Shown: one piece after another, positions 9,044 through 59,638 of the stretch
How positions within the stretch are numbered: position 1 is the stretch's first letter
Layout: each line of letters begins with the position of its first letter
Assembly (NCBI GenBank): GCA_030647555.1
Contig: JAUSJG010000008.1
Span: forward strand, 1,467-65,466
DNA length: 64,000 nucleotides
Origin: a bacterium
GTDB taxonomy: Bacteria > Patescibacteriota > Andersenbacteria > UBA10190 > CAIZMI01
Reading direction: 5' to 3'
Position numbers and translations under genes: made by a program
The notes under the pieces: generated by a model
Database searches by the model: none
What the model saw: only the letters and a program-made list of their open reading frames with translations
What the model was told of the DNA's origin: nothing

Positions 9044-9186
9044 TGTATATGGTATTTAGTATATAGTATATGGATTTACAATGTTTGGTGGTAAGATAAT
9101 TTTTTGCGGTTGACTAATCATTGGTCGGAACTTTACAAAACAACATCGGACAATAATTCCATATACCATACACTAAATACTATACG
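9044..9186. mobile_element. MITE-like element, family 1, copy 1
   Basis: Left terminus tgtatatggtatttagtatatagtatatggattta. Right terminus aattccatataccatacactaaatactatacg (inverted). The internal sequence is homologous to copy 2. Confidence 0.7.
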
Positions 9187-9283
9187 CTTTTTCTAATTGT
9201 GCACGGTGTTTGTTTTGTTGTTTATGTTCTTGACTTTGGAAATGCCAAATAATATACTCTAAAGTCCGCTATGGTGGCGGAGT

Positions 9284-11194
9284 ATGAAGATCCTTTCACA
9301 ACTGAAAGAGAGGTGCGATATGGCAGGCACGGAGCGTGTTTTGACGCTTCCGGAGTTGCAAAAAAGGGCACTCCGGGCGTTGGACGATGCACGGCTTGTT
9401 TGTTGGGCGCGGGACGAAAGTCTTAAGCCGAGGGAGGTTTTGCGTTTGGCGCAGGGGCTTAAGGGGTTGTCTCGTCGACAACCCGAGGCAGCAAGATGCA
9501 TGGCGGTGATCCGCCGTGACTATGGCCTAGAAGCCCTGGATCTATTTATCTCAAGCATGGCGCGAGCACGGGCGGAATTATCCGCCACGGAGCAGGCCCA
9601 CCGAGGAGAAATCATGGACACTCGAGTATTGCAGAGTATTGTTGGTTTGACTGATGTTCGCAAGAAGTTTGAGCTGTTACTGAAGAACGGTTACGCGAAA
9701 GAAGCGGCCGAGTTCTTGCTTGAACTGGCTACGAATGGCACGGCTTTTTGTTGGCTTTCTGTGGGTCAAGTAAGAATTGCAAATCCGCTTGGCGATGAGT
9801 TTTGTCAAGAAAAGAGCGGTTCTGCAATTTCCAGTGTGGTGTTTGTTTTTCGGAGGGAAATTGGGAAAGGATTTTTCCCTCTTGATGACCAAGAACAAAA
9901 ATCAGAATCAGAACTTTCAATTCGGTTAGTCAGCTTGGTGCCGATGTTGGAAAAGGCCGGTTTGACTGAAACTTGTCGCGTTGTCGCAATGGAGATCGTA
10001 AAGGCTGTGTTGGAAAATACCGTCAAACACGATCCGCGCGGTGAAGAAAGTCCTGCCAACTATTGGAATGTAGTGGGAACTACTGCGACGGCGCGGGAAC
10101 TTTGGCCGGTCGGTCAGCGGAATCTGGAAAACAATTCGTTGGCTTTTCAGGTCGAAATTTGGCAAGCACGTTTTCACTTTTTTGTCGGTGATCTTGGCCC
10201 GTTAACACAGCAAGTTTTACCGTCATTGGATGATGGTTACCGTGGAACGTTGGAAACGTACCAACAGCTCGATTGGTTGGTCGATTATCTGCAGGAATGC
10301 GGATGGACCATCGAGCAAGTTTGCCAAGAGTTTATCGATTGGCTGGAACGGCACGCGGAACATAATTTGAACAATCAGGTTTTTGTGGCCGTGGCCGGTT
10401 CCGCGCGTTTGCAGTACGGACTGTCTTTGTCGAAAGCTCACTTCGCGCTTCACAAACGTCTCGAATTCTGCTGGCGACAGTTGTGCAACGAGGATCCAAG
10501 AGTACTTTCGTTAGAGATGTTTGTTCAACTGGGACGGCTTGGCTTGTTTAGTAAAGATGACGCCAGTTTTTTCCTGCGCGAACTCACGGATTTGTTGGCG
10601 CGGGGAAGAGTGGCGTTAACGGCGCAGATTGTACGCGTACTTTGTTCTCTAACCTCGGTTGGTTTATGTCAATGTTTTTCAGGGCCTTATAGCGCGTTGA
10701 AAAAAACAGTGTTGGCGGAATTGGGAGAGCTTGCTCCCGAAGCCTTCGATCTGGCAATAGAAAGGCAAGCGTTCGGCGTTGCCGCCGCGCTTGGCCAGCA
10801 CTTCAACTGTGTGGATGAGGCAGCTTTACGCCTCGAGGCCAACAGATCATTGCGAGCGAAATTGGACGAGATCATTCCCGGTCCAGAAACGATGAAAAGC
10901 GCAGATCGAGAAGAAGTGCTCCTTTACGCGCTTGATGGTACCTGTCCTTCCATCGGAGACGAAGAAGATTGCTCGGACGCCACTCCCGAACTGATTGTCA
11001 TGGGAATGCCGGGGAAGGGTTGGAATGGCACCTTGACTCACGAGCAAGCGGAAAAGTATTTCGACGTGCGTGCACAGCGCGACGAATTGCTCAAGACTTT
11101 GGTTGAGATTCGCAAAACCGTGATCAAAGGATCGGTCGAAACGGCACTCGCGCTGGAAATGCCGATCGCGTTGGAAGTCGTAACGCTTCTGTAG
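9284..11194 (+). CDS. hypothetical large alpha-helical protein (Leu/Ala/Arg-rich) encoded in a GC-rich island
   Basis: ORF of 636 aa. Local GC is about 60% against roughly 40% in flanking DNA. ORFs also appear on the opposite strand, which is typical of GC-rich DNA. No motif recognised. Confidence 0.45.
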   Translation: MKILSQLKERCDMAGTERVLTLPELQKRALRALDDARLVCWARDESLKPREVLRLAQGLKGLSRRQPEAARCMAVIRRDYGLEALDLFISSMARARAELSATEQAHRGEIMDTRVLQSIVGLTDVRKKFELLLKNGYAKEAAEFLLELATNGTAFCWLSVGQVRIANPLGDEFCQEKSGSAISSVVFVFRREIGKGFFPLDDQEQKSESELSIRLVSLVPMLEKAGLTETCRVVAMEIVKAVLENTVKHDPRGEESPANYWNVVGTTATARELWPVGQRNLENNSLAFQVEIWQARFHFFVGDLGPLTQQVLPSLDDGYRGTLETYQQLDWLVDYLQECGWTIEQVCQEFIDWLERHAEHNLNNQVFVAVAGSARLQYGLSLSKAHFALHKRLEFCWRQLCNEDPRVLSLEMFVQLGRLGLFSKDDASFFLRELTDLLARGRVALTAQIVRVLCSLTSVGLCQCFSGPYSALKKTVLAELGELAPEAFDLAIERQAFGVAAALGQHFNCVDEAALRLEANRSLRAKLDEIIPGPETMKSADREEVLLYALDGTCPSIGDEEDCSDATPELIVMGMPGKGWNGTLTHEQAEKYFDVRAQRDELLKTLVEIRKTVIKGSVETALALEMPIALEVVTLL

Positions 11195-11221
11195 TCAGTC
11201 GTAGTAGGTTAGTAGTTTGAC

Positions 11222-11254
11222 CCGCATGGTTCTTTGGAACTATGCGGTTTTTTG
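11222..11254 (+). terminator. rho-independent terminator after 9284..11194
   Basis: ccgcatggttctttggaactatgcgg followed by ttttttg. Confidence 0.6.
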
Positions 11255-11331
11255 TATTTGGCAGATGATTCGTAGGGGAGCACGTCCCCGTGCTCCCGCA
11301 ATAAAACGATATCAGTTTGTCACTCGGATAA

Positions 11332-11787
11332 TTACTTTTTGTATAATTCTAAGTAGTATTTATACATAGCACCGATATTGCTGGTAGGTATTTGTTTTAT
11401 CACAGAATAAGCTGAGAAATGATTCTTGTTCAAAACTATCGGATTTCCATCCGATACTTTTATTAGATACCCGGTTGATAAATCTTGTCTATTATTTTCC
11501 GTATTAAATTTGCCTACAAACTGACTGAGCATTATTTTATCTTTTGGATTGATATTTAAACCAACCTCTTGTTGGGCGATTCTTGTAAGTGTGGCATCTA
11601 TACTTTCTCCCTTTAACATCCGCAAACCAGGGAGTGCCCATTGATTTTTGTATGGAGCGATTTTTCGCTTTACCAAAATTACTCCTTCATCGCCGTATTC
11701 AATAATAAGATCAAAGGTGGGAATAACAGCCCATTCCAAAATTAGATCAAATATTTCATTGGGGGCAAAACCCTTGTACTCCTTCAT
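11332..11787 (-). CDS. Nudix-fold hydrolase-like protein with degenerate Nudix box
   Basis: GLRMLKGESIDATLTRIAQQEVGL compared with the consensus GX5EX7REUXEEXGU shows a one-residue shift, RE changed to RI and EE changed to QE. A 2-bp gap to the upstream gene suggests an operon. Confidence 0.5.
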   Translation of the reverse strand: MKEYKGFAPNEIFDLILEWAVIPTFDLIIEYGDEGVILVKRKIAPYKNQWALPGLRMLKGESIDATLTRIAQQEVGLNINPKDKIMLSQFVGKFNTENNRQDLSTGYLIKVSDGNPIVLNKNHFSAYSVIKQIPTSNIGAMYKYYLELYKK

Positions 11788-11789
11788 TA

Positions 11790-12062
11790 CTATTTCTGTT
11801 TTTGTATAGATTCGATAACCAAACGGACATTCGGATTTTCTGAAGGAACGATATTGATTTTTCCCTTTCCATAAGTTTCTTCCAGACCGTGAAAAAACTC
11901 ATCAGCCCACGACGGAGTAATAACGGTTACTTGGCTAAAATCAAGTTCAATTTGTTCTTTTGTATCTTTTGGGATTGTGTATGCTTGCGCGGCCAATAGC
12001 GCTTCGCGGCCAGCCGGTCGCGAAATCAAAAACTTGCCAAATTTACTCATATCGATACGCAT
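11790..12062 (-). CDS. STAS-like small protein (DUF4325-type)
   Basis: 90 aa with the pattern ...ISRPAGREALLAAQAY...IELDFSQVTVITPSWADEFFHGL. Its size and pattern are typical of DUF4325 partners of GHKL ATPases. Confidence 0.5.
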   Translation of the reverse strand: MRIDMSKFGKFLISRPAGREALLAAQAYTIPKDTKEQIELDFSQVTVITPSWADEFFHGLEETYGKGKINIVPSENPNVRLVIESIQKQK

Positions 12063-12071
12063 AATTATAGT

Positions 12072-12686
12072 TTATCTTGTATTCATTATTATTTCAACTT
12101 CGGCATAGGTGCCATATACAAATTCTTGTTTATCTTGTACAAATGAAGCCACAACGCTTTCGTTTATTGGAAAAACTGTTTCAAATTTAGCGTCGCCTGT
12201 TTGAATGAAAAAATGTGCCTCGGGAAATTCTTGATTTAGTGATTTCATGATAAATTTTAATCCTCTTCCGCGATTTTCAGGTTGGCGGCCACTTATCTGC
12301 TTGGTCAACGCAACAATTAAGGCATCATGATGGGAGGTTAGATTTTTGTCTGCTTGTTGTAGGGAACGTAAAACTCCCTGTCCGCGGTCTGCAATAATGA
12401 TCCGTAAAACATTATTTTGTACTTCAAAAGAAAACCAACAACCGGATATATCCTTCCATGAACCCAAATTATGATCAAAACAGTTGGTTGTAAGTTCGGC
12501 GGCAAGAGCCGTGAGGAGCGCTGTTTTTTCTTCAGCAAGGCCATTGGCGATTGCTTCTTGGTATAATTTTGGCAGGCGGCCGTCGGCAATATCGCGCGTT
12601 GGACAATAATATTGAGGTGGTGGTTCATTCACAAAATTTTCTTTTGCCCAAATTATTGCTTGATTTTCCATAGAGCTATTATACAT
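12072..12686 (-). CDS. GHKL-superfamily (histidine-kinase-like) ATPase
   Basis: Bergerat-fold motifs: N box ELTTNCFDH, G1 box IADRGQGV, G2 box GRGLKFI. Confidence 0.65.
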   Translation of the reverse strand: MYNSSMENQAIIWAKENFVNEPPPQYYCPTRDIADGRLPKLYQEAIANGLAEEKTALLTALAAELTTNCFDHNLGSWKDISGCWFSFEVQNNVLRIIIADRGQGVLRSLQQADKNLTSHHDALIVALTKQISGRQPENRGRGLKFIMKSLNQEFPEAHFFIQTGDAKFETVFPINESVVASFVQDKQEFVYGTYAEVEIIMNTR

Positions 12687-12789
12687 CGCTTTTACAAAAT
12701 GTGTCCGTATCCAGTAATTATTTTGTCTTTCTTGCTTCTTGTTCGAAAATTATTTATTCTATTATAGTCAAAGGAGGACGGCGTTCCGA

Positions 12790-12850
12790 CTTCCGATATC
12801 CCGCCCATCTGGGCGAGGCTCGCCCTGAGGGGCGGCTGACTTCCGATCTC
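12790..12850. repeat. GC-rich REP-like hairpin unit (family 3) flanked by 10-bp direct repeat gacttccgat
   Basis: cccgcccatctgggcgaggctcgccctgaggggcgg. Related units lie at 26497-26540 and, as two tandem inverted copies, at 50670-50770. Confidence 0.6.
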
Positions 12851-12857
12851 CTCGTAC

Positions 12858-12957
12858 GGCCTCATCGTCTAACGGCTAGGACGAAGCGTTCTCAACGCTT
12901 AAATCGGAGTTCGCCCGCCAAAACGGCGGGCGCCCGCTGAAATAGCGGGCGATTCTC
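12858..12957 (+). pseudogene. truncated duplicate of tRNA-Glu (nt 1-56) with two GC hairpins inserted in the T-arm
   Basis: 12858-12913 matches the first 56 nt of the tRNA at 13011. Then follow cccgccaaaacggcggg and cgcccgctgaaatagcgggcg, then attctc. No 3' acceptor strand is present. Confidence 0.55.
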
Positions 12958-13010
12958 TAGTATGATTTTGCAATAGACAACCGCAAGAAAACAGATAAAA
13001 CTGTAAATAC

Positions 13011-13085
13011 GGCCTCATCGTCTAACGGCTAGGACGAAGCGTTCTCAACGCTTAAATCGGAGTTCGATTCTCCGTGAGGCTACCA
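13011..13085 (+). tRNA. tRNA-Glu (anticodon CUC), CCA encoded
   Basis: Manual fold: 7-bp acceptor stem with a G1:U wobble, D-arm gtct/ggac, anticodon stem aagcg/cgctt, loop ttCTCaa, T-arm cggag-ttcgatt-ctccg, discriminator A then CCA. Confidence 0.7.
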
Positions 13086-13090
13086 ATGTT

Positions 13091-13771
13091 TTATTGCTGT
13101 TGTTTCAGCAGTTTCGAGCAATCCGCTTCCTTCATATATGTTCTGGTTGGTAGGTTATCTGACAGAAAACTGCCCATGCTTTGTACACCAGATTTTGTGC
13201 GTTCCCAAAAACTTAACTGTTTGGACGCTAGTGGGTTGGGATTTGGGGCAGGAGTGGCCGGAAAATCTTTTGGCAGAATCTCTATTTCTAATTTTTTGGC
13301 GCCGAAGGCGATTGCTTCCTTTGTTGTCGGGTGCCAGATGTCGATAATTTTTACGCCGTTGTATTTGGCGTTCATTCGATCTTCTACGGTATAAAAATCA
13401 TTGCCGATTTTCAAACGGGTGCCAATTGGAAGAAAATTGGTGGCAACTACTCCTTTGCGAACAACAGTGCCAGACGCGGTAATGCATGGCGACGCATCGT
13501 TTTGATCGACAGTGGGCGAATAGGCGACGGCAGTGACTTTAAATTTTTGACCGACTTTTGGGGAAAGGTATCCGACAGTACTCATTTGCAATTTACTGAA
13601 AGCGTCACCAATCGCGCTAAACCAGCCAACCTTTTTTTCTTCGGTTACTGTGATTCTGTAGCGCGGGGAGTTGATTTGTTGGGCAAAGGCAATAGAACTC
13701 ATGATAAGAATGAGTAATGAAGTTGCGACAACAGAGTATTTCCAGGATGATTTTTTGTGTTTCTTTGGCAC
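13091..13771 (-). CDS. secreted 3D-domain protein (MltA/RlpA-like cell-wall-associated)
   Basis: Signal peptide. C-terminal FLPIGTRLKIGNDFYTVEDRMNAKYNGVKIIDIW...LEIEIL matches the 3D-domain pattern. Confidence 0.6.
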   Translation of the reverse strand: MPKKHKKSSWKYSVVATSLLILIMSSIAFAQQINSPRYRITVTEEKKVGWFSAIGDAFSKLQMSTVGYLSPKVGQKFKVTAVAYSPTVDQNDASPCITASGTVVRKGVVATNFLPIGTRLKIGNDFYTVEDRMNAKYNGVKIIDIWHPTTKEAIAFGAKKLEIEILPKDFPATPAPNPNPLASKQLSFWERTKSGVQSMGSFLSDNLPTRTYMKEADCSKLLKQQQ

Positions 13772-13994
13772 TAATATAAGTATATAGTGAGAGAAAAAAT
13801 AAATCCAAAGCTGGAGTTTGGAAATAATTTTTCAGTCTCCAATTTGAAATTTGAAATCAATTTTTAATATCTAAATTTGAAATACGAACGCGTTTTTCAA
13901 ATTAATTTATTACGATATTTCAAATTTCAAATTAAAAATTCACAAAATAAGATTGCTTTTCTACTGATGTATTTATAACAGTATGGTCTTCTCT

Positions 13995-15806: not shown

Positions 15807-15943
15807 GACGGCAATTAGAAACTAGAACTTAGGGTTTAATAATATATTGAACGGATGAAGTATAGCTGTGGTTGTAGTTTTTGGCAAGCGTTCACGATGC
15901 TAAATTTTTGACGTCTCAATAATTTAGTAATAACATTATACAC

Positions 15944-16735: not shown

Positions 16736-16739
16736 AATT

Positions 16740-17096: not shown

Positions 17097-17151
17097 AAAT
17101 TGATATTATTAGGATTTAGTTGATAAATAATACTTTTGAGGGATTTAGATT

Positions 17152-17298
17152 TGTATATTGTATTTGGTATATAGTATATGGGTTTATTGACAATAAATCG
17201 TAAGATATTGTTTTGCGGCTGATTATTTCTTGGTCGGAATTTTATATTACAACTTTGGGATAATAATTCAATATACTATATACTAAATACTATATACA
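17152..17298. mobile_element. MITE-like element, family 1, copy 2
   Basis: tgtatattgtatttggtatatagtatatgggttta ... aattcaatatactatatactaaatactatataca. Internal homology to copy 1 (ttttgcggctga...ttggtcggaa). Confidence 0.7.
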
Positions 17299-17361
17299 AA
17301 GAGCTACTGGAGTTTGCCGCGCCCATGCACCACAAGGGTGCAGGGCTCGCAAAGACTGATG

Positions 17362-17811
17362 CTATACGCGGTGTTTCTTGCGACGCAACTCTGCTACCTT
17401 AAGTCTCGCCATACTCTGTTCTATCACCGACGTTGCTTCGGCAAGTGATACCTGATCCTTGGCAGTCTTTTGCATTTCCATTGCACGTTCCAGTGCTTCT
17501 TTGGCGTGCATTTCGTTGATGTCTTCGGCTCTCTCTGCTGTGTCGGCTAAAAGGCGGGCGCGTTTTCCATCGATTTCCATTAAGCCACCGGATGTTGCTA
17601 GGTGTTCGAGATTCGCATCAGGATCGCCTTCTTTTTTTCGAACGGAAATTACGCCAGGTGTCACAATATTTATTAACGGCATGTGGTGCGGGAAGATTCC
17701 TATTTGTCCATTTGGTGTTGGCACCAGGATCTCATATACATCTTCCTGTAACTTGAGTCCTTCCGGCGTAACTAATTCGAATGATATTGAAGTCATGTGA
17801 AAAATTTTCAA
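17362..17811 (-). CDS. atpC: F-type ATP synthase epsilon subunit
   Basis: Last gene of the atp operon. Epsilon-like beta-sandwich N-terminus and helical C-terminus. Confidence 0.8.
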   Translation of the reverse strand: MKIFHMTSISFELVTPEGLKLQEDVYEILVPTPNGQIGIFPHHMPLINIVTPGVISVRKKEGDPDANLEHLATSGGLMEIDGKRARLLADTAERAEDINEMHAKEALERAMEMQKTAKDQVSLAEATSVIEQSMARLKVAELRRKKHRV

Positions 17812-17929
17812 TTATCAATTGCCAATTATCAATGAATTATCAATTCTTAAATTATCAAACGACGACGTCGAAAATTGATCATTGAGCCATTTGATAATTA
17901 ATTGAAAATTGGTCATTGAAAATTGATAA

Positions 17930-17931
<2 letters not shown>
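17800..17931. mobile_element. MITE-like element, family 2 (aattatcaat palindrome), copy a, inside atp operon between atpD and atpC
   Basis: Terminal inverted repeats aattttcaattatcaat ... attgataattatt. The centre is cgacgacgtcg. Homologous copies lie at 25517-25650 and 39358-39496. Confidence 0.65.
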
Positions 17932-19345
<1,414 letters not shown>

Positions 19346-19423
19346 TTAAGATTCTACAATTTAATAGTTGCTGAGATTGCTTCGCCTCGCCCCTTGGCGA
19401 TGGCTCGCAAAGACGGACGGGTA

Positions 19424-20299: not shown

Positions 20300-20338
20300 G
20301 ACGGGGAATTATGAATGACGAATGATGATTGATGAGAA

Positions 20339-24787: not shown

Positions 24788-24929
24788 AATTAGCCCCTTA
24801 TTCATTTGTTGAGCACAGAACAACCAACAACGACCGACACCACAACATAATATAGTTACCCAAAAATTGCAACCGATCAGGGTCGGACCCTGATAAGCTT
24901 CATCATTCATCAATCATTATTCATCATTC

Positions 24930-25267: not shown

Positions 25268-25516
25268 AGAGAATTCACCTACTTTCGTTTCGTAAATATA
25301 ATCGAGGTTTTTCCTTCGCTCTAACGCTATGGACGCTCTCGACCTTATCTACGCTTTTCGAACTCTCTTTTAACCGAGATCGCTAGTACGTTTCTTTGGT
25401 CTGCTACGTCTGCTATTTGAGGAGTATTTACCCCGTGACGAAAATATAGCATAGGGGGTGGAAAAAAGCAAATTGACAATGAAAACCCTGAGACCAAGCA
25501 ATACCTATCATCCTTA

Positions 25517-25650
25517 AAATTATCAATTTTCAATGACCAATTATCAATTAATTATCAATTAATTATCAATGCTTAAATTATCAAACTTCGGCCGTTGCAT
25601 TTGAAAATTATAAAAATTGATCATTAATTGATAATTGAAAATTGACCATT
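25517..25650. mobile_element. MITE-like element, family 2, copy b
   Basis: aattttcaatgaccaattatcaat ... attgataattgaaaattgaccattgaaaatt. Confidence 0.65.
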
Positions 25651-25779
25651 GAAAATTTTACATGGTTATTTTTTGGGAGAATTTGAATATTCATATTTGT
25701 TCTATCTTCATGTAATTTGTCTTATACTTACCTTGTCCTTTTCCACAACCGAATAGGAACCGTTTGAAAGGAGCTGACG

Positions 25780-26496: not shown

Positions 26497-26540
26497 CGGA
26501 GCGACGTGGCCGCCCATCTGGGCGAGCTTCGCCCTGAAGG
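26497..26540. repeat. GC-rich REP-like hairpin unit (family 3)
   Basis: gccgcccatctgggcgagcttcgccctgaagggcgggg. Confidence 0.55.
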
Positions 26541-26547
26541 GCGGGGA

Positions 26548-29302: not shown

Positions 29303-29451
29303 TGTATATCGTATTTGGTATATGGTATATGGATTTAGTATGTTGGGATGTGTCGTCAAGTTTTTCGATGAAATTAACTTTAAAATGTAATACTTAATTT
29401 TGACGGATATTTTTCTGAACCCCATATACTATATACTAAATACCACATACA
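29303..29451. mobile_element. MITE-like element, family 1, copy 3 (between ABC permease and ATPase genes)
   Basis: tgtatatcgtatttggtatatggtatatggattta ... ccccatatactatatactaaataccacatacaa. Confidence 0.7.
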
Positions 29452-39357: not shown

Positions 39358-39496
39358 AAAAAATTTTCAATGATCAATTCCCAATTTTCAATTAATTATC
39401 AAACGACTTAATTATCAATTGACGACGTCGCCTTTTGATAATTTAAGAATTGGTCATTAATTGATAATTGACCATTGAAAATTGATAATTATCAAG
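39358..39496. mobile_element. MITE-like element, family 2, copy c
   Basis: aaaattttcaatgatcaattcccaattttcaat ... attgataattgaccattgaaaattgataatt. Centre cgacgtcg. Confidence 0.65.
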
Positions 39497-43248: not shown

Positions 43249-43438
43249 ATCTGTAGTTTGTATATAGTATATGGTATATAGTATATTAATTTTAGGGGCC
43301 TTCATTTTTCGTTGTGGTTAATTCAGACCGTGAATCTGGTCGTAAATTTATTTTTCACGCGCGCTACTAAATTCGATTTTAGAAGGTGGTAATTTGTAGT
43401 TAATAATTCCATATACTATATACCAAATACAATATACT
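43249..43438. mobile_element. MITE-like element, family 1, copy 4
   Basis: tgtatatagtatatggtatatagtatattaat ... taataattccatatactatataccaaatacaatatacta. Confidence 0.7.
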
Positions 43439-45329: not shown

Positions 45330-45381
45330 GACTGTCCCTAAAGTAGCGCATACTGCATACAAAATACTGTATACTGCATAC
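45330..45381. repeat. degenerate family-1 terminus-like sequence immediately upstream of GT4 start
   Basis: gcgcatactgcatacaaaatactgtatactgcatac resembles the right terminus catatactatataccaaatacaatatac. Preceded by the hairpin tagggactgtcccta. Confidence 0.35.
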
Positions 45382-46530
45382 ATGACTAAAATTGCCTATA
45401 TTACAAACGCGCCGCCACAAGCAGGGATGGGGAAACCGGCACGAGAGATTTATAGCAGAATTAACCCCCCCCTTAGTCCCCCCTTGAATAATGGGGGATA
45501 CGTGGCGGATTTCTTTTATCTCGATGCCAGTAAAAGAGAACTATTAAAAAATGATGTAAAAATCGCGGAAGTGAGCAATCTGCCAAAACCTTTACAGTTG
45601 AAACCGATTCAGTGGTGGCGTCTGGCGCGTCAATTACCCACAGAAGGTTATGACCTTTGGCACATTACAAATCAGACGTTGTCGTTTATTCCACGGCAAG
45701 ATTTTCTATTGACTGTTTATGATTTGATTGAACTATTGGAACCGCAAGAAAAATTTGGGAAATACGTTGCGCAATATCTATACAAAGGAATTCCTAAGGC
45801 GAAACACATTATTTGTATCTCGGAATATACCAAAAAGATGTTACAGCAAGCCTACGCCGTACCTGATGAAAAAATCACCATTATCCCGTTGGGGGTTGGG
45901 GAACATTTCAAACCAATCGAAGGGGTACGAGAAAGTATCGCCTATCATGAACTGCTGGCGCAAAATAATTTACCGAAAGACGCGAAAATCATTTTGTATG
46001 TCGGGTCGGATCATCCGCGTAAAAACTTGAATTTGCTGGCCGGGGTTTTGACGAAAGTTAAAGCGCGGGTGCCAAACGCGTATTTGGTGAAAGTGGGTGA
46101 CCCTGGTCTAATGGCGGGTCGTATCGATTTTCAAGATAAATTAGCCGAACTGGGGCTAACTGATGCTGTGCGCTTCATTAGCAATGTCGGTGATGAAAAA
46201 TTACGTTTATTGTATGCATCAGCGGATGTCTTCGTTTTTCCGTCTTTCTATGAAGGTTTTGGGATCCCACCATTAGAAGCGATGGCGTGCGGAACGCCGG
46301 TTGTTTGCTCCAATGCCACTAGTTTGCCGGAAGTAGTTGGGGACGCGGGGTTGTTGCATGATCCGACGGACGTTGAGGGTTTTGCCACGTCAATTACTAG
46401 GATTTTAACGGACACGAATTATTCTGCGGAGTTGAGTCGCAAAGGATTGGAAAGAAGCAAGATGTTTTCGTGGGAGGGGATTGCGCAAAAGACGGCGGAA
46501 GTGTATCGGAGAATGACGGCGAGTATTTAG
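45382..46530 (+). CDS. glycosyltransferase family 4
   Basis: [41 protein letters not shown]. Confidence 0.85.
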
Positions 46531-46535
46531 TATTT

Positions 46536-46666
46536 TGTATATAGTATATGGATTTATCAATAACAAACGTCGAGTGTTGTGTAGATGATATATATAGTTA
46601 AGGTTAAAAACAATTTACGAATGTTGTTGCTACTTCCATATACTATATACCAAATACAATATACAA
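46536..46666. mobile_element. MITE-like element, family 1, copy 5
   Basis: tgtatatagtatatggatttatc ... cttccatatactatataccaaatacaatataca. Confidence 0.7.
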
Positions 46667-48589: not shown

Positions 48590-48646
48590 TTAAGACGTAT
48601 GTCTTTGCGAGGGGTATCAACCCCGAAGCAATCTCTAGAAATTCTT

Positions 48647-48784
48647 TGTATATAGTATTTGGTATATTGTATATGGAATTATTTTGTGAGATTGGCTTTC
48701 TACTGTTTCGGGAATATAAAACACTAGTGTCGCCTTACGTGGTTAAAGTTTGATAAATCAATATACTAAATACTATATACTAAA
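48647..48784. mobile_element. MITE-like element, family 1, copy 6 (ends 3 bp before MT start codon)
   Basis: tgtatatagtatttggtatattgtatatggaatta ... aatcaatatactaaatactatatactaaaac. Confidence 0.7.
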
Positions 48785-48787: not shown

Positions 48788-49579
48788 ATGTACGCACTTG
48801 AAAAGTTCTATCCCAAAGGTTTTGACCCGGCACGTTACTGGGAGGATCGCTATGCGCAAGAACATGCGGCGGGAAAAAGTAGTGAAGAATACGCCAAACA
48901 AGAATTTTGGCCACTAATGGAAAAATATCTTTCTAAAGAAAAACTCTACTTGGATGCCGGCTGTGGAATTGGTGGCTGGATAATTTTCCTCAAAGAACAG
49001 GGCTACAACGTAGAGGGTATTGATATTGCAGCACGTACGCTTCGGGCGCTTATGGAATATGATCCTGATTTAAAACTTAAAATGGCGACGATGACTGGGA
49101 TTCCGTACACCGATAGTTCGCTGGATGGGCTACTGTCTATCGGAACATTGGAATATGTGAAAGACAAAGTCCCGGTTGCTTTAAAAGAAGTGAGTCGTGT
49201 CCTAAAGAAAGATGCTGTATTTTTTATGGAAGTGCCGATTGCAAATATATTGAGAAAAATAATTTATATTCCACTCAAAAAAATAGAGCGAATGATCAAG
49301 ATGTGGCAGGGGCTGACGCCAACGTTTAGTAATTATCTTTTTGATAAGGAAAACTTTCTTAATCTGCTCAGCGAAAATGGTTTTGAAGTATTAGAAGTAA
49401 AACCACATGAATTGCCAGACAGAGATAGTCATTATTGTTTGTATGTGGATTATCCTTTTCTGCGAGGTAAAGAGCCGTATAAATTGAATGTTCTAGGTAA
49501 GTTAATGAAAAAAGTAGCAAATGCCATCTCGCCATGGATCGCGTCGACTGGTATGGTGGTAGTGGCAAAAAAACTTTAG
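48788..49579 (+). CDS. class I SAM-dependent methyltransferase (paralog of 44466..45269)
   Basis: LDAGCGIGGWIIFLKEQGYNVEGID. Shares the C-terminal PHELPDRDSHYCLYVDYPFLRGKEPYKLN block with its paralog. Confidence 0.75.
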   Translation: MYALEKFYPKGFDPARYWEDRYAQEHAAGKSSEEYAKQEFWPLMEKYLSKEKLYLDAGCGIGGWIIFLKEQGYNVEGIDIAARTLRALMEYDPDLKLKMATMTGIPYTDSSLDGLLSIGTLEYVKDKVPVALKEVSRVLKKDAVFFMEVPIANILRKIIYIPLKKIERMIKMWQGLTPTFSNYLFDKENFLNLLSENGFEVLEVKPHELPDRDSHYCLYVDYPFLRGKEPYKLNVLGKLMKKVANAISPWIASTGMVVVAKKL

Positions 49580-50464: not shown

Positions 50465-50620
50465 TAATAGTCGTCGTGTACGTTCAATTCCAGCCGTCGC
50501 TAAAGCTATGGCCGGCGGGCATGAATTGCCCAAAATAAATACGACTGACTTAAATAAAAAAATGAGCTTTATTTTGAAGCTCATTTTTGGAAGTTTTGTT
50601 TGCGAAAACGGATTAACCGC

Positions 50621-50662
50621 GACCGTTCACGGAACGGAGCAACCCTGCTCCGTTCCGTGAAC
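50621..50662. repeat. 19-bp-stem hairpin, member of a 2-copy hairpin family (other copy 56928-56967)
   Basis: ccgttcacggaacggagca accc tgctccgttccgtgaacgg. Confidence 0.55.
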
Positions 50663-50669
50663 GGTGCAG

Positions 50670-50770
50670 AGTTCCGACGTCCCGCCCTTTAGGGCGAGGC
50701 TCGCCCCGATGGGCGGCCGATTCCCGATTTCCCGCCCTTCAGGGCGAGGCTCGCCCCGATGGGCGGCTGA
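50670..50770. repeat. two tandem GC-rich REP-like units (family 3, inverted relative to 12802-12836)
   Basis: cccgccctttagggcgaggctcgccccgatgggcgg, then cccgcccttcagggcgaggctcgccccgatgggcgg. Confidence 0.6.
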
Positions 50771-50772
50771 CC

Positions 50773-51717: not shown

Positions 51718-51770
51718 ATGGATTTTATGTTACGAGGAGTGAGGGAATAGTCAAATTGATAGGGTATGTT

Positions 51771-52447: not shown

Positions 52448-52539
52448 AAGTTTTTATATTAACATATGTTAACATTACTTAATTATAGGTCTTAATTTCT
52501 TTAGGTCAATATCTCGTTATAGCTAATAAATAGTGTTAC

Positions 52540-52775: not shown

Positions 52776-53153
52776 TGATTTTTTGGCTGATTTGGCATAA
52801 ATTGTTTATATGGCACAGTAGCAAATTGTTCAAAGCAACTCGGTTTATATTTATTCCTCAAAAAACAACATATCGCAGGAATTAAGGACGGGAGGAAACG
52901 GGTATTACGATGTATTGGGAATTACGGCTGATATTTGGGGGCGAGATCTTAAATACCGTTCTAAATAAAAAGCCGTCCTCCGCGAGGAGGACGACCCTTG
53001 GATGTGATACCCTTTCAGTTACGACTAACTGAAAGACACAAGAATACTAGCAGGCAGGTAGTGGTTTGTCAAGGGCAATGGGTGGAATTATGAAGGACAA
53101 CAGGTAGAAAAATGAATTATTTATCACTAACATCAGGAGAATACACCAATAAT

Positions 53154-53972
53154 ATGAAGATCGTGAATTCAAACCCTAAACGTAACCCAGTAAATGTAAT
53201 CGCGCTGATTCCAGCGCGTGGTGGGCAACAAAGTATCAAGTACAAGAATCTCTCCAGGCTTGGTAAAAAATCCTTATTACAATGGGCGATTGAAACGGCC
53301 ATGACCTCTAAAATGATTGATGCGGTGGTAGTGTCTACGGAGGATAAAAAAATTGCCAGAGAAGCAAAGAAGTTTGGTGCTTTAGTTGCACCGCGTCCGG
53401 CTGAATACGCACAGGCAACAAGCGGTGACGCCGGTTTTTATACGCACGCTGTTCAATGGTTGGAGCAGGAATTTGGATGGAAACCGGAATATATCGTTAA
53501 TCTGCGACCAACTACACCGTTGCGTTTTTCGGAAGATGTTGATGCAATGATTGAATACGTTCAGAAGAGTGGTGCGGACGGTATAAAAAGTGTGATGCAA
53601 ACTCCTGTTCATACTTATAAAATGTGGACATTCGCGGGAAACGCGAATAAAAAAATTGGTGAAGCCGGACAGATGAGTCCGATTTTAAACGACGAATACC
53701 GAAAACTGCATGGTCCCGATCAGCCGCGTCAGCGGGTTTTTGAAATGTATCCGCAATATTGGCAGGATGGCCAGGTGGATATTACCCGTCGAAAATTTAT
53801 ATTACGTCCGGAGTGTCTGAAATATGAAAATGTTTTTGGGCCGAACTTGCACGGCTATGTTTTGGATGGACGCTTGATTGCCGATATCGACAGTGAGAAA
53901 GATCTTATCCGGGCAGAAAAGTTGTACAAACAGTACCTTTTAGAAAAGAAGCAGAATTTGTCGAACTACTGA
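53154..53972 (+). CDS. acylneuraminate (CMP-nonulosonic acid) cytidylyltransferase family
   Basis: VIALIPARGGQQSIKYKNL...LLQWAI is the CMP-NeuAc/CMP-Kdo synthetase N-terminal motif. Start moved to MKIVNS after an aggaga RBS. Confidence 0.75.
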   Translation: MKIVNSNPKRNPVNVIALIPARGGQQSIKYKNLSRLGKKSLLQWAIETAMTSKMIDAVVVSTEDKKIAREAKKFGALVAPRPAEYAQATSGDAGFYTHAVQWLEQEFGWKPEYIVNLRPTTPLRFSEDVDAMIEYVQKSGADGIKSVMQTPVHTYKMWTFAGNANKKIGEAGQMSPILNDEYRKLHGPDQPRQRVFEMYPQYWQDGQVDITRRKFILRPECLKYENVFGPNLHGYVLDGRLIADIDSEKDLIRAEKLYKQYLLEKKQNLSNY

Positions 53973-54066
53973 TATTTTCACATTAGCTTAATGTTTATTG
54001 CCCCCAATTATGGCTAATATAAGCTCGTAATAGGCACAAAAAAGTTAAGTTAATGTGAAAATATCA
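53969..54066. repeat. palindrome with 23-bp arms overlapping the stop codon of 53154..53972
   Basis: ctgatattttcacattagcttaa ... ttaagttaatgtgaaaatatcag. Confidence 0.5.
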
Positions 54067-54094
54067 GTAGATTAATATAAGCGAAAGCAATATT

Positions 54095-54237
54095 TGTATA
54101 TTGTATTTGGTATATAGTATATGGAATTATCGACTGTTGCGAAAATAAATTGGCAGATTGGGGCTATCTCTACCATCTGTGCTACATGAACGCTCGGATT
54201 AAATAAACCCATATACTAAATACTATATACAATATAC
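54095..54237. mobile_element. MITE-like element, family 1, copy 7
   Basis: tgtatattgtatttggtatatagtatatggaatta ... aacccatatactaaatactatatacaatatact. Confidence 0.7.
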
Positions 54238-54257
54238 TGGTAAAAGACTTCAGTCTT

Positions 54258-55463: not shown

Positions 55464-55655
55464 ATGATTAAAGTATCAGATAAATTTATAAGAACCAAAT
55501 GGATTTGAATTGTTTAGGGATGATTCTGTAAAAGGATTATTCCTAAATAGCGTTACGACGTATTGACGCAAACTATAACTTATAGTATGCTACCTTATTC
55601 CCTGAAAGCGTTTCGGGGTTTGTGTTCTGTGAATAATTTGCGAAGGGTATGAAAG

Positions 55656-56840
55656 ATGCCAAGTAAAAAAGCGAAAAAACGATTTCTAGTGGTCGCCGCC
55701 CATACAGGTAGCTTCCTCAATGGTCCTCTGCCGGTGGCGCGTTTACTTCGAGAGATGGGGCACGATGTTTCGGTATGCTTGCAGACTGGGCAATCGGCTT
55801 ACGATTCGTGGAAGTCGAGTGGCAAGGTTTGGCAGGAGCTCAAATGGTTCGATGTCGCCGGAAAGAGCGGTGCATGGCCGCAGCTCAAGTCAACGTTTGA
55901 TGCAGTGCTTCTGGCAATGTCGCCGGTCATTGGAGCCAATTCTGAGATCGGTGCGTTGATGATGGCACATGAAGACGGGGTTCCGGCTTTTGGGGTATCG
56001 GATTTTCCGGGGAGTTTGCGGAATCCGGGCTGGCGTGATTATGTTCGTCACTTGACCACGCTTTTCTCCCCGATGCCCGAACCGAATTTTCCTGGAAAGT
56101 GTGTCGTCTCCGGCTGGGGTGCGTTGGAAAAATGGCGCAACAAAGATGTTGGCGCCATGGCTTATGCTACACGTCTCAAGCTCGGTATCGGTCATGAACC
56201 GGTGCTGTACGTTTTCTTTTCTCCGGAGCGCGAATCGCCATTGGCCTTGGAACACTTGGCGATTTTAATTCGAGAAGTGGATATCGACGGCATTACGATA
56301 GTGGTCAATCGTCACGGGCGTGAAAAAAGTACGCCCGTTGATGGGAACGCTCGAAGATTCCGAGTGGCGCTTTGCTTGCTTGGTGAAAATAATCGTGTTT
56401 TCGATAACAGCCCGGAGTATTCCGAATTTCTCAGTTTGGATGAACGTTCGATTTTGCCACAGTTTCGACCGGATGAGTTTCTTGAATATCAGGAGGCCTT
56501 AACTTTGGCCAGAGGAAATGGGGTTGCCCTAACGATGTTCGGGACGGATGGTTTACTCGCACCGTATCTGGCTTCGAGTGGGATTCTTTCGGTGTGCTGG
56601 CTTGATCCTGTTTATGGTGGTGCCGTTCTAAAACGTGAGAAGCAAGTTGAGCGGCTCGATTTGCCTATCCTTTGGCAGCCGACGAATGATCTGGATTTGC
56701 TCACATGCATCGACAGTGGGTTGCGTGGACGTTCCGATGCACGTGAGAAGCAGATTGAATTGTTAGAACAACAGTATCCGTTTCCGAAATCGTCTGCACC
56801 GCAGATCATCGTCGACGAGATCTTGCGACAACTGGGTTAG
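55656..56840 (+). CDS. hypothetical protein (possible GT-B-like fold) encoded in GC-rich island
   Basis: Local GC is about 55-58%. N-terminal FLVVAAHTGSFLNGPLPVARLL resembles a GT-B N-terminal Rossmann strand. Followed by a terminator. Confidence 0.35.
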   Translation: MPSKKAKKRFLVVAAHTGSFLNGPLPVARLLREMGHDVSVCLQTGQSAYDSWKSSGKVWQELKWFDVAGKSGAWPQLKSTFDAVLLAMSPVIGANSEIGALMMAHEDGVPAFGVSDFPGSLRNPGWRDYVRHLTTLFSPMPEPNFPGKCVVSGWGALEKWRNKDVGAMAYATRLKLGIGHEPVLYVFFSPERESPLALEHLAILIREVDIDGITIVVNRHGREKSTPVDGNARRFRVALCLLGENNRVFDNSPEYSEFLSLDERSILPQFRPDEFLEYQEALTLARGNGVALTMFGTDGLLAPYLASSGILSVCWLDPVYGGAVLKREKQVERLDLPILWQPTNDLDLLTCIDSGLRGRSDAREKQIELLEQQYPFPKSSAPQIIVDEILRQLG

Positions 56841-56877
56841 TTTGTAAGATGTCTGACACCTTCAACTCGTTCTTTAT

Positions 56878-56906
56878 CCCGACACATGCGTGTCGGGATT
56901 TTTTTG
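56878..56906 (+). terminator. rho-independent terminator
   Basis: cccgacacatgcgtgtcggg followed by atttttttg. Confidence 0.65.
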
Positions 56907-56927
56907 TTAAGTTTTGCGAACCTGTGT

Positions 56928-56967
56928 CCGATCACGGAACGGAGCAATCTTGCTCCGTTCCATGATC
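56928..56967. repeat. hairpin repeat (second copy of 50621-50662 family)
   Basis: ccgatcacggaacggagca atct tgctccgttccatgatcgg. Confidence 0.55.
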
Positions 56968-57017
56968 GGTGTTGGTTCGTTGCTGGCAGAAAAAGAAATA
57001 AAGAGTATAACTAAGAA

Positions 57018-58335
57018 CATGACTAACAAAATTTCTCCTCTAGAATCGTTTCGAACAACTCTAAGAGAAGTCGGTGGCAAAATGAATTTGCGCAAAGATG
57101 TAATCGAAATATTAAGTTATCCGCAACGGGTGATAGACGCGTATATTCCAGTTGAAATGGATAACGGGTCGATGCGAATTTTTCACGGGTATCGCGCGCA
57201 GCACCAAAATGCGCGTGGGCCATATAAGGGAGGCATTCGTTTCCACCCGGATGTAGATGAACAAGAAGTGCAGGCATTGGCGGCTTGGATGACCATGAAA
57301 ACAGCAGTTGTAGATATTCCGTTCGGCGGTGCAAAAGGTGGTGTGGCTTTGAACCCGATGGAGTTGTCGGACAGGGAATTACAACGTCTTACTCGGGCCT
57401 TTGTGCAAACATTAGGTGAAGCCATTGGTCCAAACGTTGATGTGCCGGCGCCGGATGTAAATACGAATGGGCAAATTATGGCGTGGGCGGCGGACGAGTA
57501 CAGTCGTCTGCATCAAGGGGCACCGCACGTTGAAGCAACTTTCACGGGTAAGCCTATTTCGGTGGGTGGTAGCTTGGGCAGAGAAGAAGCAACCGGTTAC
57601 GGCGGAATCTTGGTTTTGCAAAACTTCCTGACGCGCAAAAATATCGCCAAGGACGGTCTAAAAGTGGCAGTACAGGGTTTCGGCAATGTGGGTTCCTATT
57701 TCGCGCGGTTTGCCCATAATAACGGCATGCACGTGGTGGCGGTTTCCGACTCGCGTGGTGGAATCTATAATTCCGATGGCCATGATGTTGATGCGGTGGT
57801 GGCCGGTCAAAAACGCGCCGGTCATTTGGAAAAGAATGTTTGTTATCCGCGGATTGGTGTTGCTGAAGCGGGTCAAAAAGCCAGCGAGTGTTCTCCGATT
57901 ACCAACGCGCAATTGTTGGAATTGCCAGTAGACATTTTGGTGCCGGCGGCATTGGAAAATCAAATTACCGCCGAAAATGTCGAAAAAATTCAAGCAAAGA
58001 TAATTATCGAGATGGCCAACGGACCAATTACGCCGGAAGCGGATGTGATTTTAGCGCGTCGTGGCATTATTGTTATTCCCGATATTTTAGCAAATGCCGG
58101 CGGCGTCACAGTCAGTTACTTTGAATGGGTACAAAATTTGCAGAATCTTTATTGGACCAAGGAAGAAGTGAATTCTCGGTTGGAACAAAAAATGGCCACT
58201 TCATCAAATGATGTTTTTGATATTGCCGATAAAGAAAAAGTTACAAACCGCGAAGCGGCATACCGAATTGCTCTGGCACGCGTTCAAGAAGCGATGGTGC
58301 TTAAGGGTTGGGTACCGGCGCAGGTGAAGGGGTAA
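57018..58335 (+). CDS. gdhA: NAD(P)-dependent glutamate dehydrogenase
   Basis: KGGIRFHPDVDEQEVQALAAWMTMKTAVVDIPFGGAKGG is the GDH signature. Start moved downstream of the hairpin repeat. Confidence 0.9.
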
Positions 58336-58398
58336 GGATAGAAGATTTTTTGGGTTTATTAACCTTTGGTTTCTTTGGGGTTGTTACGCTTACCTCTT

Positions 58399-58857
58399 TG
58401 TATATGGTATTTAGTATATAGTATATGGATTTATTGACTCTGTTCTGGTTTTGAGTTTGAACTCCTTATTAGGCCGTTTATTAGTTTTGACACATCAACG
58501 GTTTTCTTTGCGATGGTGTTAAAATCATCCTTTGTTATATAACCCAAATCTCGACAAATGATGTATTGGTTTTGAAGTTCTGTTAGGGATCCTTTTGCAA
58601 TCGCATAAAACTGTTGTTTGTCTCGTTTTGTGTTTCGACTAAATCCTTCGGCAATGTTAGAAGAAACAGATACCGCGGCTCTTCTCATTTGACTAGTTAG
58701 TCCAAATATTTCTTCTTTTGGAAATGATTTGGATATTTTGTAGGTCATTAGCACTAATGCGTGGCTTTCTCTCCAAGCATCTAAATGCGTAAAAGATGTG
58801 ATTTTGTTTGTGTTTGATAAATCCATATACTATATACCAAATACCATATACAAAAAA
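58399..58857. mobile_element. family-1 element carrying a gene: termini of the MITE family flanking a four-helix-bundle protein gene
   Basis: Left terminus tgtatatggtatttagtatatagtatatggattta at 58399-58433. Right terminus aaatccatatactatataccaaataccatatacaa at 58820-58855. The gene's ATG GAT TTA start lies within the terminus. Confidence 0.65.
58431..58826 (-). CDS. four-helix-bundle protein (23S rRNA intervening-sequence protein family, TIGR02436-like)
   Basis: WRESHALVLMTYKISKSFPKEEIFGLTSQMRRAAVSVSSNIAEGFSR...AKGSLTELQNQ matches the family pattern ...FPKEE.YGLTSQLRRAAVSIPSNIAEG...ARGSL.EL. Confidence 0.75.
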   Translation of the reverse strand: MDLSNTNKITSFTHLDAWRESHALVLMTYKISKSFPKEEIFGLTSQMRRAAVSVSSNIAEGFSRNTKRDKQQFYAIAKGSLTELQNQYIICRDLGYITKDDFNTIAKKTVDVSKLINGLIRSSNSKPEQSQ

Positions 58858-58880
58858 TTTTATTGAGCAGTGGATGCTGT

Positions 58881-59594
58881 TTATTTTAGGTGGTGTCTAT
58901 TGAACCGAATCGCCCACACCAACCACAGAGCCTCCCAAATTATTGACTTACTGATTTTTGATTTGCCTACTCTTCTATCAATAAACACGATTGGCATTTC
59001 GGAAATTTTTGCTTTGAGGGCGGATGCACGGGAATTCATTTCAATTTGAAAACCATAACCATCGGCATGAACGGTAGCAAGATTCATTTTCTTCAACAAC
59101 TCTGTTCTCCAGCACTTAAAACCGCCTGTGAGATCCGAAATTGGAACGCCAGTTACTAGGCGTGCATAGATATTGGCCCACTGGCTTAAAAGCCTGCGAT
59201 TGGTTTTCCAGTCGGAGACTTTTCCACCTTGCATATAACGTGAACCAATAACTAAATCGGTGGTTTTAATTTTATTTACAAATCGCAGGATATCGTTTGG
59301 GTCGTGCGAAAAATCCGCGTCCATCTGGATAATTGTATCGGCACCACGATTGATCGCCTCTTGAAAACCGGCCAAGTATGCACGCCCGAGACCCTCTTTT
59401 TTCGCGCGATTAAACAATGAAACTGGAGGAAATTTTTGTGAATAAGATTGAACGATTTGGCCGGTACCATCGGGTGAAGAATCATCAACCACGAGAATTG
59501 ATAGGTCCGGAATCTGTAATCCAATAATTGTCTCAATTAAATTACCGATATTTTCCTTTTCATTATATGTCGGTATTACAACTGTAGTTTTCAT
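58881..59594 (-). CDS. GT2 polyprenol-phosphate mannosyltransferase (Dpm1/PpmS-like)
   Basis: VVIPTYNEKENI...VVDDSSPDGT, DAD and QGGK motifs. ~237 aa. Confidence 0.8.
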   Translation of the reverse strand: MKTTVVIPTYNEKENIGNLIETIIGLQIPDLSILVVDDSSPDGTGQIVQSYSQKFPPVSLFNRAKKEGLGRAYLAGFQEAINRGADTIIQMDADFSHDPNDILRFVNKIKTTDLVIGSRYMQGGKVSDWKTNRRLLSQWANIYARLVTGVPISDLTGGFKCWRTELLKKMNLATVHADGYGFQIEMNSRASALKAKISEMPIVFIDRRVGKSKISKSIIWEALWLVWAIRFNRHHLK

Positions 59595-59597
59595 TTG

Positions 59598-59638
59598 AGA
59601 GAAAAGGTTAATAATTCCATATACTATATACTAAATAC
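59598..59638. repeat. solo family-1 right-terminus copy
   Basis: aataattccatatactatatactaaatactatatacaaata, in the same orientation as the terminus at 58820-58855. The two flank the GT2 gene. Confidence 0.6.

Follow-up and report, generated by a model that had tools for sequence, protein, structure and literature searches.

Intergenic repeats of an Andersenbacteria contig are probably intervening-sequence-type hairpin cassettes located outside rRNA

The repeats described here, termed family 1, are spread over 64,000 nt (the window) of an Andersenbacteria genome (Patescibacteriota; GenBank assembly GCA_030647555.1, contig JAUSJG010000008.1, positions 1,467 to 65,466). They are probably hairpin cassettes of the intervening-sequence (IVS) type, found outside rRNA in forms with and without an open reading frame (ORF). 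The ORF-bearing copy encodes a four-helix-bundle protein of the PF05635/TIGR02436 family (23S rRNA intervening-sequence protein, IVP), and the location of such a gene between inverted heptamer arrays proved to be the rule for PF05635 genes across phyla. The elements work like IVSs, sharing the protein, the heptamers and the stem, and their population behaves like REPIN-RAYT.

The initial annotation of this stretch had proposed a multi-copy family with inverted termini, and the family is real. A 35-nt terminus consensus was matched 13 times at no more than 3 mismatches, compared with 0 matches in 100 dinucleotide-preserving shuffles, and its 15-nt core occurred 38 times against 0.04 expected, giving at least nine sites in 64 kb. 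These comprise seven short elements with inverted arms and an eighth of 459 nt, plus a solo arm and a degenerate array. Six of the coordinates first given were confirmed, and the others were corrected to 43259-43438, 46522-46666, 59612-59646 (solo arm) and 45350-45381 (array). The copies and the gene are as follows.

E1, 9044-9186: between the PBP2 gene and the next plus-strand gene; ORF-less hairpin, about five heptamers per arm (minimum free energy, MFE, -46.5; z -6.7).
E2, 17152-17298: directly downstream of atpC; ORF-less hairpin (z -7.1).
E3, 29303-29451: inside an operon, between ABC ATPase and MacB-type permease genes; ORF-less hairpin (z -4.7).
E4, 43259-43438: between two minus-strand genes (epimerase/dehydratase and polysaccharide deacetylase); ORF-less hairpin.
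E5, 45350-45381: adjoining the ATG of a GT4 gene; degenerate solo array, 4-5 heptamers long, with units of the GTATGCA type.
E6, 46522-46666: between GT4 and NeuB genes; ORF-less hairpin (z -6.2).
E7, 48647-48784: between NeuB and methyltransferase genes; ORF-less hairpin (z -5.6), ending 3 nt before the ATG at 48788, as first reported.
E8, 54095-54237: between convergent cytidylyltransferase and glycerophosphotransferase-like genes; ORF-less hairpin (z -6.8).
E9, 58399-58857, minus strand: full-length cassette of 459 nt, composed of an arm, the IVP gene and an inverted arm.
IVP gene, 58431-58826, minus strand: 131 aa, PF05635/TIGR02436 four-helix-bundle protein.
E10, 59612-59646: solo arm; the site holds an IVP cassette in a relative (L201), to the right arm of which E10 aligns.

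Each family-1 arm consists of five tandem heptamers in a fixed unit order (NGTATAT NGTATTT NGTATAT NGTATAT GGAWTTA), with the fuller consensus TTT-GTATAT-N-GTATTT-R-GTATAT-A-GTATAT-GG-AWTTA-TYRAC. One ordered consensus of 35-42 nt, including the odd second unit GTATTT and a subterminal GGAWTTATYRAC, was shared by 17/17 arms of the window. The paired arms of an element (35-42 nt) were 73-95% complementary, forming inverted termini such as those of MITEs (miniature inverted-repeat transposable elements). The window contained 23 tandem arrays of period 7 and 0 of periods 5, 6, 8, 9 or 10. Arms of one element differed by 7.7 mismatches and arms of different elements by 6.9 (permutation p 0.94). 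An element's own two arms are therefore no more alike than foreign arms, which points to the copying of a single sequence and not to slippage at each site. A search for compensatory covariation of paired arms found none.

The internal segments had been described as partly homologous, which held for E1 and E2, whose cores are homologous; all other short-element cores (50-110 nt in length) were mutually unrelated. All family-1 copies were situated between protein-coding genes and not in the rRNA helices of classical IVSs. Most were intergenic, as had been claimed for all of them, but the GT4 gene, whose end is at 46530, takes its final codons and its TAG stop from the left arm of E6, and 58399-58857 holds the 131-aa gene. 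Seven of the eight paired copies are non-coding; E9 carries IVP, a four-helix-bundle gene and not a transposase. Co-directional genes lying a few to tens of nucleotides apart flank six of the ten sites, including sites in the atp and ABC-transporter operons. The heptamer type of E5, GTATGCA, differs from that of the other window arms and is the type of the sister lineage.

The protein encoded by E9 matched PF05635 with an E value of 3e-38 (130.6 bits, cutoff 33.8) and TIGR02436 with 122.7 bits (cutoff 24), and it aligned with PDB entry 2GSC (Xanthomonas XCC0516), which has five chains, at an E value of 1.5e-30. The title of the original paper on the XCC0516 structure, as cited in PMC3936711, speaks of 'five four-helix bundles'. 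The start codon ATG lies inside the innermost heptamer of one arm (..GTATATGGATTTA), and in the opposite arm the reverse complement of this motif provides the TAA stop. With both ends of the gene inside arm motifs, the IVP ORF exactly fills the space between the arms. In the minus-strand RNA of E9, an uninterrupted stem of 40 bp encloses the whole ORF (MFE -120.5 kcal/mol, z -8.9), and folding of six short elements out of the seven gave a stem of 28-35 bp in each case (z -4.7 to -7.1). The cassettes thus possess the enclosing stem of an IVS, and E9 possesses in addition the optional S23p/PF05635 ORF preceded by heptamers.

The association between IVP genes and heptamer arrays was then followed in other genomes, starting either from the arrays or from the protein. 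When species-representative genomes were scanned for four heptamers of the GTATWT type, at least 120 loci were obtained, in Patescibacteria, Atribacterota, Bacteroidota, Planctomycetota and others. Among the array-selected loci that were listed, seven contained an IVP gene, and the array abutted it in five of these seven. A cassette from a Moraniibacteria metagenome-assembled genome aligned with the E9 cassette over 460 nt, arms included. For the protein-selected test, the best 80 of 586 metagenomic IVP relatives were taken, of which 71 loci had enough flanking sequence. Period-7 arrays were found on at least one side in 63/71 and on both sides in 41/71 of these loci, compared with 3.5% for period 7 in control segments of the same contigs and 0-3% for periods 5, 6, 8, 9 and 10. 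The upstream and downstream arrays were inverted relative to each other in 31-33 of the 41 two-sided loci. With a tolerant array detection, both sides were occupied in 59/68 loci, and the modal arm had five units, followed by four. The heptamers around metagenomic IVP genes were of the GAAT type (28), the GTAT type (17), the GATT type (10) and others, so the heptamer sequence varied by lineage and the period and unit number were conserved.

The same arrangement was observed in cultured bacteria. The Xanthomonas XCC0516 orthologue lies between accB and accC and is flanked on both sides by GGGAATC-type arrays, with the upstream arm reading GGGAATC GGGAGTG GAGAATC GGGAATC and the downstream arm CCCATTC CCCATTC TCGACTC CCTATTC. 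A tblastn search of plasmids located IVP genes in 30 records, mostly from Nostocales; seven of the eight genes inspected were bracketed on both sides, and the eighth (Nostoc PCC 7120) had an array on one side only. The arms were of the types GAGTCAG in N. punctiforme, AATTCAG/AAGTCAG in T. variabilis (Trichormus), GGGTGTA in Calothrix, GGTTTAA/GGTTCAA in Riemerella and CAGAGGA/CGGATGA in Azospirillum. In a Picosynechococcus plasmid, the gene has GGAGATA arms and sits between cmr2 and cmr3; occurrences of IVP genes within cas operons are reported in PMC3936711. A PF05635 gene between convergent arrays of 4-6 heptamers was observed across six phyla. No paper stating this general association was found in the literature searched, the coverage of which was incomplete, so this is absence of evidence only.

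Two details of individual IVP loci were recorded besides. In Xanthomonas (L214 1400-1900 and L217 1460-1960), the annotated start of the 109-aa form appears too far downstream in comparison with the forms of 125-129 aa. In Aureliella (Planctomycetota; L031 2393-2968), the IVP gene is preceded by an unusually long arm, an ATCACCA-type heptamer run of more than 8 units, and the frame upstream of the gene reads as HQSPITN repeats.

Turnover of the elements was assessed in three syntenic relatives, L201/L227, L226 and L207. Orthologous proteins of L201/L227 were 77-98% identical to those of the window (median about 90%), the L226 atpD product was 91% identical, and the L207 GDH 83%. The intergenic sites compared as follows.

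NeuB / methyltransferase: window 198 nt with E7; L201/L227 91 nt with an unrelated hairpin; L207 8 nt.
GT4 / NeuB: window 178 nt with E6; L207 54 nt, no array.
ABC ATPase / permease: window 211 nt with E3; L226 10 nt.
atpD / atpC: window and L201/L227 with a second-family element; L226 10 nt.
atpG / atpD: window with a different hairpin family; L201/L227 with a family-1-type hairpin; L226 with AAAATTG arrays.
GDH / GT2: window with the IVP cassette; L201/L227 with a 97-nt empty hairpin; L207 86 nt with a GC hairpin.
GT2 / next gene: window with solo arm E10; L201/L227 with an IVP cassette; L207 28 nt.

Elements are therefore gained, lost and relocated between relatives in this lineage. The presence/absence polymorphism for which the initial annotation had proposed a check was found at NeuB/methyltransferase, ABC ATPase/permease and, for a second-family element, atpD/atpC, where filled window sites correspond to spacers of 8-10 nt. 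Solo arms are probably remnants, and the alignment of E10 with the right arm of the L201 cassette indicates that IVP switched sides of GT2 between the lineages. Simple recombination between arms was considered for this relocation and rejected by reasoning, as the products of deletion or inversion would have gene orientations other than those seen; the relocation thus calls for gene conversion or for active movement. Downstream of atpC, the same position upstream of the shared flank AATCYMAATCCCTCAARAGTATTATTTAT was occupied in both lineages, with GTATATN arms and a 75-nt core in the window and with GTATGCT arms and a 14-nt loop in L227.

The heptamer type changed as a whole between these lineages. 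All eight arms seen in L201/L227 (8/8), including those of the IVP cassette, were GTATGYK, compared with GTATATN in 17/17 window arms, and the odd GTATTTA unit was kept in both types. This is concerted evolution across every copy of a genome, ORF-bearing and ORF-less alike, and it requires ongoing copying or conversion rather than ancient fixed motifs. The number of arrays paralleled the presence of IVP (window, 23 arrays and 1 IVP; L201, 4 and 1; L207, 0 and 0), and IVP was the most diverged orthologous pair (68% identity). The proposal that clustering in the glycan locus marks or drives variability of that locus was not supported: the clustering is modest and lineage-specific, one relative had 2 elements in the syntenic 21 kb and another had 0, and the atp operon was as densely populated.

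A mechanism may be outlined from these features. With six of ten sites between closely spaced co-directional genes, the elements would be transcribed by read-through as part of host operons. By analogy with the Coxiella 23S IVS, the long AU-rich stems of 28-40 bp would be substrates of RNase III, cleavage by which would part the flanking cistrons and release the cassette RNA; it would also free the IVP start codon buried in the stem. Copying or homogenization would most likely proceed via the arms, through gene conversion based on arm homology or through a trans-acting factor able to read the 7-nt period, for which the pentameric IVP would be the obvious candidate. The coincidence of a pentameric protein with a modal five heptamers per arm is suggestive, if numerological. 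It is conceivable, although we consider it doubtful, that PF05635 proteins and inverted arms of about five heptamers form a phylum-spanning selfish protein-repeat pair resembling RAYT-REPIN, in which the pentamer would read one heptamer per subunit (5 x 7 = 35 nt per arm) and drive or guard cassette copying, possibly via the excised RNA.

Several observations weigh against the interpretation as IVS-type cassettes or against its generality. The classical definition of an IVS fails, the elements being outside rRNA, and no RNase III gene was present within the window. The start codon of IVP is buried in the stem, and to our knowledge the protein family has no known biochemical activity. The metagenomic sample consisted of the 80 closest relatives of the window IVP and was not a random sample of the family; 8/71 of its loci had no detectable arrays, and in one locus (L043) the 3' array was in direct orientation. 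IVP sequence tracked heptamer type only weakly (58.6% vs 55.5% identity), a difference that is significant but tiny and confounded by host phylogeny, and it was not taken as evidence of recognition. A profile HMM search of six-frame translations revealed no IVP traces in the short-element cores (best E about 0.9), and only 2-3 arms keep 10-20 nt resembling the ends of the IVP ORF. A derivation of the short elements from the IVP cassette by internal deletion is accordingly no more than weakly suggested by the sequences; the inner end of the E6 left arm has about 20 nt resembling the IVP 5' end (z 4.9). Finally, the window covers 64 kb, and a transposase or other mobilizing enzyme may be encoded elsewhere in the genome.

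Other functions and carriers were also considered. Promoter donation by the termini, as initially suggested, was rejected: sigma-70-like matches numbered 40 compared with 35.7 +/- 5.9 expected, and the arms were not among the best matches. Intrinsic terminators were rejected, as the stems are AT-rich with T-runs at the 5' side and A-runs at the 3' side and no T-run follows them, and three-frame translation stops were not enriched in the arms against shuffles. Rfam gave no match for the elements at the gathering threshold or at E<=1, and no rRNA was found in the window. PADLOC gave no match that would indicate membership in a defence system. A tblastn search against phage genomes was empty, and a scan of viral contigs with the arms gave 3 unrelated matches.

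Among the alternatives, classical MITEs, that is, non-autonomous forms derived by deletion from a DNA transposon, the transposase of which would lie elsewhere in the genome and recognize the 35-nt inverted termini, survive best, but are unlikely. The MITE-like label fits how the population behaves: the elements are small, AT-rich, multi-copy and mostly non-coding, with conserved inverted termini, variable cores and sites occupied or empty depending on the relative, and the 64-kb window is only part of a contig of at least 257 kb. The label does not fit their family membership. Target-site duplications, which the initial annotation had proposed to look for, were absent at all eight elements (8/8; best junction direct repeat 0-2 nt, random mean 1.6). 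No transposase, reverse transcriptase or Y1 (RAYT) domain was detected in about 60 window ORFs scanned against Pfam, in agreement with the initial report that the window has no transposase. Furthermore, the termini are tandem heptamers with a 7-nt period, and between identical arms no gene other than the four-helix-bundle IVP was found, either here or in dozens of other genomes. The heptamer sequence is free to vary and the period and unit number are fixed, which is unusual for transposase binding sites.

A second alternative, RNA-mediated copying, is speculation and more improbable still. Here, the elements would spread by reverse transcription and re-integration of the excised hairpin RNA, and IVP would play a part like that of its homologue Avd, the accessory protein and reverse-transcriptase cofactor of diversity-generating retroelements (DGRs), likewise a four-helix bundle forming pentamers. 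IVP is detectably homologous to Avd (PHROG 3206 'Avd protein of DGR', E 7e-15; NF033474, E 3e-05), the elements are built for transcription and RNA folding, neither duplications nor a transposase were found, and IVS elements occupy rRNA genes, the most heavily transcribed genes. However, the score against the Avd model NF033474 (24.2 bits) is far below its cutoff of 80, no reverse transcriptase was found in the window or beside any inspected IVP locus, no template or variable repeats were seen near IVP, and there was no poly-A or other signature of retro-copies.

REPIN-RAYT systems (Bertels and Rainey, 2011) reportedly have one repeat type per genome, intergenic hairpin-forming inverted doublets and a single-copy gene flanked by the repeats. 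The family-1 population resembles them in having many inverted doublets of one heptamer type per genome (GTATATN in the window, GTATGYK in L201/L227), a single-copy gene flanked by the same repeats, no target-site duplications, as would be expected, and a repeat and gene that change together between lineages. That the doublets are literally copied as single-stranded DNA hairpins by a once-encoded, domesticated Y1 transposase of the IS200/IS605 type is nevertheless highly improbable: the flanked gene encodes a small PF05635 four-helix bundle and not a Y1 transposase, the window has no RAYT-like ORF, and the arms are 35-nt AT-rich tandem heptamer arrays, not GC-rich REP palindromes of 20-30 nt with a conserved GTAG head.

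Equally implausible are local simple-sequence repeats or fixed regulatory motifs that arose by slippage and were kept by selection without being copied: heptamers are an over-represented class of long tandem repeats in many bacteria according to passages of PMC4692102 and PMC4679880, Coxiella strains differ in unit number, the arrays adjoin gene starts and stops, and only tandem 7-nt units were found, but all 17 arms share the ordered 35-42 nt consensus with its GTATTT unit and GGAWTTATYRAC, empty sites in relatives are 8-10 nt spacers, and neither promoters, T-runs after stems nor three-frame stops pointed to a regulatory role.

The interpretation as IVS-type cassettes draws on the closest known system. 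The 23S rRNA IVSs of Coxiella burnetii and Leptospira with an S23p ORF encode the same protein family as the window IVP (Warrier et al., 2016; PMC4990558). In Coxiella, tandem heptamers (GACAGAT) stand directly before the ATG of S23p, as heptamers do in the window cassette. The Coxiella terminal repeats pair into a heptamer-containing stem of 28 bp, within the middle of which RNase III cuts, and the number of heptamer units varies among strains (PMC4990558); short ORF-less forms exist among the rRNA IVSs of other bacteria too. In contrast, the window elements lie between protein genes, often in operons, and not in 23S helix 9, 25 or 45, and they have expanded to at least nine sites in 64 kb, mostly without an ORF. 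RNase III processing, experimentally demonstrated for the Coxiella IVS (PMC4990558), is only inferred for the window.

Genome-wide heptamers described previously are, like the window arms, intergenic, composed of few tandem units and close to gene ends. Cyanobacterial STRR (short tandemly repeated repetitive) heptamers are said to have been described by Mazel in 1990. Passages of Rehm et al. (2015; PMC4692102) describe genome-wide GGGAATC heptamers in Xanthomonas, with 70-75 convergent inverted pairs per genome, and GGGGAYT heptamers in Nostoc, and passages of MacGregor (2015; PMC4679880) describe TAACTGA heptamers in Beggiatoaceae and cyanobacteria. The Xanthomonas IVP gene is bracketed by exactly the GGGAATC arrays described by Rehm et al. 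In the passages searched, both sources treat heptamers as simple-sequence repeats, G-quadruplexes or translational signals, and these passages contain no link to PF05635 or IVSs.

A general link between PF05635 and heptamers ties together several repeat phenomena that lack an explanation. rRNA intervening sequences with an ORF were reportedly described by Ralph and McClelland in 1993, and the purpose of that ORF is said to have been a puzzle since then; together with the over-represented tandem heptamers, a puzzle since the STRR of 1990, it may form a single problem. If the selfish protein-repeat pair were true, it would unify rRNA IVSs, the Xanthomonas GGGAATC pairs, at least some cyanobacterial heptamers and the dense intergenic hairpins of the candidate phyla radiation (CPR). 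For annotation, the dense 'MITE-like' hairpins of AT-rich sequence that small CPR genomes contain, those in atp and transporter operons among them, become readable as IVS-type elements, which probably shape mRNA processing in such operons, and PF05635 genes in cas or other operons as insertions rather than system components. Xanthomonas campestris offers a tractable carrier, with the solved pentameric XCC0516 structure and an insertion in the essential accBC operon.

Further repeats with the family-1 architecture occur in the window. A second family of hairpins has arms of GATAATT/GAAAATT/GACCATT heptamers, and its copies are 77-84% alike over 110-133 nt; no IVP gene with such arms was found within the window.

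Second-family copy 1, 17800-17935: between atpD and atpC; present in L227, absent (10 nt) in L226.
Second-family copy 2, 25510-25660.
Second-family copy 3, 39358-39490: over 133 nt, 84% complementary to the copy at 17803-17935.

A third heptamer type, GAATNNN, forms short solo arrays at 20306-20323 and 24900-24924 and is the commonest type around metagenomic IVP genes. The array at 20306-20323 fills the 39-nt atpA/atpG spacer, which is conserved in L227 and 0 nt long in L226. A GC-rich double palindrome, CCGCCC-NNNN-GGGCGAGGCTCGCCC-NNNN-GGGCGG, occurs at 12801-12835, 26510-26544, 50682-50716 and 50732-50766, the last two in tandem; it represents a separate intergenic repeat family, with a similar motif in L207 (locus 1255-1556). 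Two further hairpin families span the sites 50615-50666, 56928-56977, 48590-48646, 19337-19423 and 17300-17361: one (CCGTTCACGGAACGGAGCAA...TTGCTCCGTTCCGTGAACGG) is also present in L201, and the other (GTCTTTGCGAGCC...GGCGAAGCAATCT) recurs beside family-1 elements and in L201 (5940-6058). At 53968-54068, beside E8, there is a perfect-arm hairpin of about 100 nt (TATTTTCACATTAGCTTAA...TTAAGTTAATGTGAAAATA) with only weak, miRNA-precursor-like Rfam matches. Such hairpins make up most of the intergenic DNA in this lineage.

The remaining observations concern other parts of the window. The 5' part of the tRNA-Glu(CTC) gene is present as a perfect 59-nt duplicate (12855-12913 vs 13008-13066), 153 nt upstream of the intact gene (13011-13085), followed by GC-rich hairpins, and may be a scar, left by insertion into the tRNA gene or by its rearrangement. 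The segments 1543-1808 and 63553-63850 share about 100-190 nt at 72-92% identity, partly inverted, with no Rfam match; the repeat sits upstream of the ORF at 1717-2367 (plus strand) and of MurJ (61900-63573, minus strand), and the two may have a leader or a regulatory region in common. The gene upstream of GDH (window 55656-56840, L201 8678-9895) is only 38% identical to its positional counterpart in this otherwise approximately 90% identical relative, which has an extra gene there, and this looks like a non-orthologous replacement within the glycan locus.

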